DNA from: Chiloscyllium plagiosum
Taxonomy: Eukaryota
Reading direction: 5' to 3'
Assembly (NCBI RefSeq): GCF_004010195.1
Contig: NC_057749.1
Location: forward strand, 11,820,839-11,884,838
Length of the DNA: 64,000 bases
Notes under the pieces: model-generated
Databases searched by the model: none
What the model saw: only the letters and a program-made list of their open reading frames with translations
What the model was told of the DNA's origin: nothing
Shown here: positions 52,882 through 53,341 of the stretch, piece after piece
Layout: every line of letters starts with the position of its first letter
Position numbering within the stretch: the first letter of the stretch is position 1
Position numbers and translations under genes: made by a program

Positions 52882-53341
52882 ATGTTGTCCCCGGTCCCGA
52901 AGAGGCCGTGCTCCCGCCTTTCTCTCCGAGCTCGGGGCGGCCTCAACCCCCCGGCCCCGGCCCCGGCCCCGGCCCCGATCCCGACAGCGCCAGAAACACG
53001 GACTGGTGCCTGCGGCGCTGACCGCAGAAGCGGCCGCCTTCCATGCAGACTCTCGAGGCGGCATCGGAGAGCGGCCCCGGCCCCGGCCCCTGACCCCGGG
53101 GAGGGAGCGGCCCCGGCCCCTGACCCTGCCCCCGCCCCCGGGGAGGGAGCGGCCACGGCCCCGGCCCCTGACCCTGCCCCCGACCCCGGGGAGGGAGCGG
53201 GTCCGGGGAAGGGCAGGCCTCCGGTCCCTTACTACCTGAGCAATTTCCTGCTGGTGATGGAAGCGGTTCTGGGGAGTGAAGATAAAGAGCTTTTCAATGA
53301 AGACGATAATTACTGGCTGGGAACATTCCAGAAACTCTCAG
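52882..53341 (+). CDS. FAN1: FAN1 coding exon 1
   Basis: gccgtc[18 protein letters not shown]..., Pro/Ala repeats, [15 protein letters not shown]...FQKLS; donor G|GTGATT. Confidence 0.85.

Follow-up and report, generated by a model that had tools for sequence, protein, structure and literature searches.

The FAN1 nuclease of Chiloscyllium plagiosum and other cartilaginous fishes appears to have lost its PIP, UBZ and MLH1-interaction motifs from within the N-terminus

FAN1 is a leading genetic modifier of Huntington's disease onset, with R507 a site at which change hastens the disease, and Chondrichthyes are long-lived, slowly mutating jawed vertebrates. A preliminary description of the 64-kb Chiloscyllium plagiosum sequence analysed here (the window, whose coordinates are used below) proposed that the FAN1 gene near its 3' end encodes a protein lacking the UBZ4 finger and most of the linker, possibly uncoupled from FANCD2 and MLH1 with its nuclease core intact. 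Is this short N-terminus genuine, how far does it extend beyond one species, and what could such a FAN1 still do? A review calls the PIP and UBZ motifs well conserved in multicellular eukaryotes (PMC7990447), and the purpose of the UBZ, PIP and MLH1 motifs is presented as still disputed (PMC4803051, PMC7990447). The features of the locus are as follows.

52790 to 52881, + strand: probable CpG-island promoter, putatively active, with three CCAAT boxes (52792, 52809, 52846)
52882 to 53341, + strand: FAN1 coding exon 1, short N-terminus and start of the FAN1_HTH core (100% identity to P0133 residues 1-153; contigs of read runs X1 and X14 splice at 53341)
52900 to 52935, + strand: retained basic Leu motif (L13), orthologue of the human DIP-box/NLS region (R15/L17) by profile scores against shuffles; candidate binding motif
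52936 to 53034, + strand: interval of about 33 codons, where bony vertebrates have the 130-140 or so residues that carry PIP, UBZ4, MIP and the MIM beta-strand
53035 to 53064, + strand: retained C-terminal half of the MIM (human 154-163; p<=0.01 in 16/19), overlapping the USP7-contacting 158-KLSRK-162 (PMC13473659, PMC13086964)
53074 to 53211, + strand: GC-rich Pro/Ala/Gly tandem-repeat linker without a KEN box
53227 to 53238, + strand: PYYL, where the folded core begins
54910 to 55050, + strand: FAN1 exon 2 (HTH), mapped to P0133 and joined from 53341 by contigs
55644 to 55842, + strand: FAN1 exon 3 (SAP), with Gln at human R507 (55784-55786); single copy found in genome G000
56736 to 63936, + strand: remaining FAN1 exons (TPR, VRR-NUC), with R706Y (61381), R739H (61817), K794N (62654) and R955S (63850), D960 intact
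Just past the window end (L009): last FAN1 exon, with E975/K977 and R982Q

The ATG at 52882 (Kozak context GCCGTCATGT) is followed by 115 residues and then by PYYL at codon 116 (53227), exactly as first counted. Going upstream in the same frame, a TGA is reached after 25 codons without passing another ATG, a CpG island (o/e 0.74, GC 0.74) abuts the start codon, and the residues KRPCSRLSL match the human R15/L17 region. The initial view of this ATG as the true, orthologous start holds. The stop codon of MPHOSPH10 (51419-51421) and its AATAAA at 51535 lie upstream, the latter about 1.35 kb from the FAN1 ATG, close to the distance of 1.3 kb given earlier; MPHOSPH10 itself carries a 500-base N gap (37215-37714) right after its apparent start. 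No CxxC..H..C/H pattern occurs in any + frame between 51301 and 54911, again in agreement with the preliminary description, and the two matches on the - strand of this interval, both outside exon 1, probably lie in LINE-derived repeats. A + frame SPYF upstream, at about 52024, was dismissed as a chance match, since it lies within a repeat, has no adjacent UBZ and is 5' of the promoter elements.

Exon 1 ends at a GT donor (53342). P0133, the annotated C. plagiosum FAN1 isoform X1, matches the exons (exon 1 at 100%) and has the Pfam domain order FAN1_HTH, Fan1_SAP, FAN1_TPR, VRR_NUC; apart from the gene in the window, no full FAN1 gene was found in the C. plagiosum genome (G000). Contigs of two read runs, X1 (guessed to be RNA) and X14 (of unspecified kind), continue from 53341 into exon 2 at 54910, and exon 1 is therefore spliced. 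No contig piece among those listed spans the GC-rich repeats (52930-52995) that separate the ATG from PYYL, so that these reads attest the splice in X1 and X14 and not the 5' end of the C. plagiosum mRNA. Of two further runs, X18 matched a repeat only and X19 had no match, so that neither bears on expression.

To place the short N-terminus among vertebrates, we compared 19 chondrichthyan proteins, from 18 named species (sharks, rays, skates and Callorhinchus) and a skate contig cluster, with 100 non-chondrichthyan proteins, hereafter bony, among the 120 matches listed of 879 above threshold, leaving out redundant isoforms and five models with an incomplete N-terminus (P0007, P0011, P0091, P0122, P0123). 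Among the matches listed, four motifs present in most bony proteins are absent from every chondrichthyan: 1) the UBZ4 CCHC pattern (0/19 versus 94/100); 2) the N-terminal PIP box, I30/F34 (0/19 versus 87/100); 3) the MIP box SPYF (0/19 versus 96/100); 4) the KEN box (0/19 versus 73/100). Of the six bony proteins without the UBZ pattern, four have a short or gapped model and two, from penguins, have the first cysteine changed. In these penguin models (P0113, P0115) Arg takes its place, and one of the two clusters has 24 members. The N-terminus ahead of the core measures 43-280 residues in chondrichthyans against 280-445 in bony vertebrates, among the matches listed, and the motif losses are shared by all 19/19, the chimaera included. 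The extremes are Narcine, with just 43 residues, and Stegostoma, with up to 280. The Pro/Ala/Gly linker (53074-53211) is highly variable in length and its repeat units differ by lineage (P0002, P0003, P0014), and the skates and Narcine (P0138, P0017, P0016, P0150) also lack the N-terminal LSL motif.

Profiles built from bony sequences and scored against 200 shuffles of each N-terminus give the same picture. The PIP, UBZ, MIP and MIM-strand profiles are each recovered in 0/19 chondrichthyans, and the profiles for the basic Leu motif (DIP; 37 bony sequences used) and for the MIM helix half reach p<=0.01 in 15/19 and 16/19 respectively. The UBZ4 finger and most of the linker are gone, as first described. 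A full MIM (strand 145-151, L152, L155, L159) is likewise not found, the strand being recovered in 0/19, the helix half in 16/19 and L155 being variable. In a Pfam zf-UBZ scan, which had been put forward as a check, the 4 bony controls yielded no more than a single weak match (E 0.022); since Pfam hardly recognizes the bony-fish finger itself, the scan is uninformative on this point.

The order in bony vertebrates is basic Leu motif, PIP, UBZ, MIP, MIM, KEN, core. In C. plagiosum the basic Leu motif and the K/R-L-S-R-R motif follow each other in this order, in one frame, 44 codons apart. As both motifs flanking the missing block survive in a single frame, the loss is internal rather than a 5' truncation, and a missed upstream exon could not supply the block. 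Its likely origin is a set of deletions in coding exon 1 that occurred in the common ancestor of all Chondrichthyes. Beyond what was first described, the trait is shared by every chondrichthyan examined and is internal, with two flanking motifs kept, and it extends to the PIP box and, in most elasmobranchs, to R507.

Could a UBZ-coding segment have been collapsed in the assembly, or a first exon missed? Exon 1 is GC-rich and repetitive, with 52930-52995 unbridged by contigs, and in one older gene model from the chimaera (P0091) some of the region was indeed skipped. However, the bony UBZ sits between two motifs that are here only 44 codons apart in one open frame, and the same layout recurs across 18 named species, in skate contigs (about 2.45 kb) coding for a full, intronless 705-aa FAN1 protein, and in a diverged second copy in C. 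plagiosum itself. This copy is a partial duplicate on contig C1 (47731332-47735068, minus strand; L002, L005), 80-90% identical and split by a 4.6-kb N gap, which comprises the last MPHOSPH10 exon and, from FAN1, the promoter, exon 1 and a portion of intron 1. It has the same ATG, the three CCAAT boxes and the short exon 1, with the frame open and the donor kept; neither exon 2 nor exon 3 was found in it. We rejected it as a UBZ-bearing paralogue, as it covers only the stretch from the last MPHOSPH10 exon to part of intron 1. Nor does a FAN1-type UBZ seem to lie elsewhere: the paddlefish PIP-UBZ segment found no credible one in genome G000, the best match (L011, E 3.2) containing a stop and being rejected as a displaced FAN1 UBZ, though an intact UBZ of another protein, presumably WRNIP1, was recovered in the same genome. 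An artefact is hence very improbable, and the short N-terminus is confirmed as genuine.

Its polarity was examined in an outgroup screen of 55 of the 150 representatives listed, 20 of them named by look-up. Eighteen of the 55 show the UBZ pattern. Amphioxus FAN1 has all the modules (basic Leu motif, PIP-like motif, UBZ, SPYF and KLSRK), and the UBZ is present in hagfish, which has SPYF too, and in Ptychodera, Acanthaster, Diadema, Anneissia, Penaeus, Nematostella and Oscarella. This makes the chondrichthyan state a derived one, and the distribution of the sequences places the block loss before the split of chimaeras and elasmobranchs. No CxxC was found in the first 450 residues of lamprey isoform X3 (P0279) or of six lophotrochozoans, all single gene models unchecked against genomes, and these appear to be independent losses. 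Like chondrichthyans, the Lethenteron, Haliotis, Potamilus, Dreissena, Ylistrum, Lingula and Owenia models (P0279, P0282, P0287, P0289, P0290, P0292, P0297) have no UBZ; unlike them, they keep a PIP-like motif, several have a MIP-like S[PK]YF, and most have long linkers. Loss of the UBZ alone thus looks recurrent, with loss of the whole block seen only in chondrichthyans among the sequences examined.

The remainder of the protein is recognizably FAN1. The core matches human and bony FAN1 at E 7e-244, an ESM Atlas search returned the FAN1 family only, D960, E975, K977, R952 and K986 are kept in 19/19 chondrichthyans (core residues numbered by hand from the alignment to human), and in a tree largely congruent with the species the chondrichthyan cores group as a single clade. 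By domains, catalytic residues and tree, the C. plagiosum gene is the vertebrate FAN1 orthologue. It shares with human and bony FAN1 (PDB 9GY0, 4REA and others) the HTH-SAP-TPR-VRR_NUC core, the PD-(D/E)xK triad, the basic Leu motif and KLSR[RK], and differs in having no PIP, UBZ4, MIP, MIM strand or KEN, 43-280 rather than 280-445 pre-core residues, and the substitutions R507Q, R706Y, R739H, K794N, R955S and R982Q. The claim that the SAP-TPR-VRR core is kept accordingly stands for the domains and the catalytic triad, and needs amending for these six positions and for a faster rate of change.

Seven of 204 columns invariant in bony vertebrates are changed in 75% or more of the 17 elasmobranchs compared (K493R, R507Q, R739H, K794N, L817V, S836A/T, R982Q/H; a mis-spliced Scyliorhinus model was dropped), a proportion that is unremarkable beside controls of 4/160, 2/158 and 18/204. 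R982 is Arg in 100/100 bony proteins among the matches listed and in 17/17 other aligned animals, and Gln or His in 14/19 chondrichthyans; R706 varies among chondrichthyans (Y/H/L/C/R) and R955 is changed in Chiloscyllium. The 5'-phosphate ligands of FAN1 are given as R706, H742, R952, R955 and K986 (PMC12078616), of which C. plagiosum has lost two (R706Y, R955S). Six variant sites from a Huntington's cohort have been assayed (10.1101/2021.04.13.439716); R507, K794 and R982 make up three of these, all with lower activity, but as those sites were picked as predicted damaging, their overlap with the shark changes is partly circular. R982Q, R706Y and R955S could lower the nuclease activity of shark FAN1. 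The ratio of chondrichthyan crown to bony branch length (fixed 14-taxon topology) comes to 1.33 in the FAN1 core, against 0.52 in FANCD2, making the core about 2.5-fold faster relative to this single control gene, for which the skate species differ from those of the FAN1 set. We infer that the chondrichthyan core is under relaxed constraint.

These data might be read as decay, FAN1 being largely dispensable in cartilaginous fishes and persisting as a nuclease with weak or almost no activity, retained chiefly to bind DNA or for some residual role. The raised rate would fit, as would the Gln/His at R982 in 14/19, the variable R706, the altered R739 and K794 and the Chiloscyllium change at R955, human R982C and R507H being reported to have lower activity (bioRxiv 10.1101/2021.04.13.439716). 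We nonetheless regard this as unlikely, given an open frame that holds D960, E975, K977, R952 and K986 in 19/19, the 197/204 bony-invariant columns that are not changed in three quarters or more of elasmobranchs, and a gene that is spliced.

As for the partners of FAN1, the human R15/L17 region is described from cryo-EM as a DIP-box binding an acidic site of FANCD2 (D667, E750, E751), the UBZ binding FANCD2 itself and not ubiquitin (bioRxiv 10.64898/2026.02.24.707417). By sequence, KRPCSRLSL is the orthologue of this box. Its L13 is directly preceded by Arg (position -1), a feature shared with CtIP and USP1, and 13/19 chondrichthyan FAN1 sequences score as DIP-boxes under criteria a-j of that study (10.64898/2026.02.24.707417), which are loose; in C. 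plagiosum both L13 and L57 do so, and the skates and Narcine have no DIP-like motif. FANCD2 keeps K561, D667 and the acidic 750/751 in 13/13 chondrichthyan sequences. Because a DIP-like motif and its FANCD2 site both remain, the idea of a FAN1 uncoupled from FANCD2 is too strong. Elsewhere in FANCD2, 23 columns conserved in bony vertebrates differ in chondrichthyans; C-terminal changes found in most of them (E to A, Y to H and L to Q at P0152 positions 1101, 1299 and 1310) are candidates for the vacated UBZ site.

MLH1 binding by the MIM is reported to need the preceding strand, L152 and L155, the MIM core binding at 33 uM without the strand and 0.06 uM with it (PMC13473659), and FAN1-MLH1 binding also needs synergy of the MIM with the MIP (PMC8324060). 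With the MIP and the MIM strand at 0/19, and L152/L155 gone or variable, MLH1 coupling has probably been lost, as first suggested. The MLH1 S3 hydrophobic pocket is intact in the C. plagiosum genome. In this species, the only one for which MLH1 was compared, MLH1 (L041:1501-1689, contig C4) has Gly at human E629, the partner of FAN1 R145 in the lost strand. Human 158-KLSRK-162 is described as contacting USP7, though not via its lysines (PMC13086964), and some contact with both FANCD2 and USP7 may remain in shark FAN1.

It is conceivable that these interactions were rewired instead, the basic Leu motif (with a second RLSRR motif in some sharks) holding FANCD2 firmly and a remnant LxxxL still binding MLH1. 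The FANCD2 DIP site conserved in 13/13, L57 as a further DIP-like residue in 4/19, the 8/19 best MIM-helix matches at the orthologous place that have Leu where human FAN1 has L155, and the intact S3 pocket would agree with such a scheme. Yet the DIP definition also passes 479/5,700 human nuclear proteins and overlaps NLS features, the MIM strand and L152 are lost, and L155 is replaced in many species in which K/R-L-S-R-R is kept, all of which makes firm rewiring quite improbable, more so than decay.

FAN1 R507 is reported to form a salt bridge with PCNA D232, and R507H/A to abolish activation by PCNA (PMC12078661). Residue 507 is Arg in 100/100 bony proteins among the matches listed and Gln in 15/17 elasmobranchs, C. 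plagiosum included, the change falling on the elasmobranch stem in the core tree. A basic residue is kept in the chimaera (Arg), Mobula (Arg) and Pristiophorus (Lys), the Arg of Hypanus sits one position before it, and hagfish FAN1 has acquired Gln507 independently with its UBZ intact. Loss of PCNA activation is thus neither universal in the class nor tied to loss of the UBZ. Shark PCNA keeps D232, so that no compensation is visible there, and the hydrophobic side (S-I-F) of the FAN1 outer mandible is still present. PCNA (L048:1501-1623, contig C42) has Gln at human R210, adjoining the FAN1-contacting Y211. Judged by these comparisons, C. plagiosum FAN1 lacks five features of the vertebrate type: UBZ, PIP, MIP, full MIM and R507.

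The explanation that we favour, and consider probable, is that chondrichthyan FAN1 is a largely autonomous, SAP-targeted nuclease that has kept cross-link and flap cleavage and shed the wiring for fork restraint and repeat control, under relaxed constraint. The SAP/TPR/nuclease core alone would reach branched or cross-linked DNA, and unhooking of cross-links would be SAP-driven and FANCD2-independent, by analogy with FAN1 of S. pombe, Pseudomonas and UBZ-mutant mouse. Shark FAN1 would no longer be activated by PCNA or firmly bound by MLH1, the basic Leu motif might provide weak residual FANCD2 contact and nuclear import, K/R-L-S-R-R might contact USP7, and the roles in ub-PCNA fork restraint and in PCNA/MLH1-linked handling of repeat loops would have been lost. 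UBZ-mutant mouse and human FAN1 are reported to rescue cross-link sensitivity, the SAP recruiting rapidly and the UBZ giving a slower, FANCD2-dependent phase (PMC4803051), and PIP and UBZ together to bind ubiquitinated PCNA at stalled forks (PMC5648898). It is from this rescue via the SAP and this role of PIP/UBZ at forks that a self-targeting nuclease is suggested.

Precedents exist in the FAN1 of S. pombe and Pseudomonas aeruginosa, which also have no UBZ and are reported to repair cross-links (PMC4803051, PMC7990447, PMC4201288). S. pombe, however, is described as having no obvious FANCD2/I (PMC4402529), whereas sharks keep FANCD2 (K561, DIP site), PCNA and MLH1, and their UBZ loss is secondary. 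Engineered human mutants (UBZ*, C44A/C47A; PIP*; MIP/MIM*; R507H/A; FAN1 364-1017) offer a laboratory counterpart to each shark loss, but the shark combines the losses in a wild-type allele fixed across a class.

Chondrichthyan FAN1 proteins are already in public annotation, and the block loss itself appears to be unreported: we found no publication describing it in a search that mostly did not reach subscription papers, figures and supplements, where alignments could show a shark sequence. The epaulette shark has among the lowest measured vertebrate mutation rates, according to PMC10587355. It carries the short FAN1, so that the loss came without evident germline point-mutation cost. More tentatively, and with less confidence than in the autonomous nuclease itself, Chondrichthyes may have shut down the FAN1 arm coupled to PCNA, ubiquitin and MLH1, the arm that in human restrains forks and limits CAG expansion; most sharks and rays have as wild type a non-basic residue 507 together with the K794 and R982 changes, possibly matched by MLH1 E629G, and would then control repeats and forks another way. 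A vertebrate class without the UBZ, PIP and MLH1 motifs yet with FANCD2, MLH1 and PCNA amounts to a natural separation-of-function allele, and would show which functions of FAN1 are dispensable to a vertebrate, the kept DIP/NLS and KLSRR motifs pointing to these two as less dispensable.
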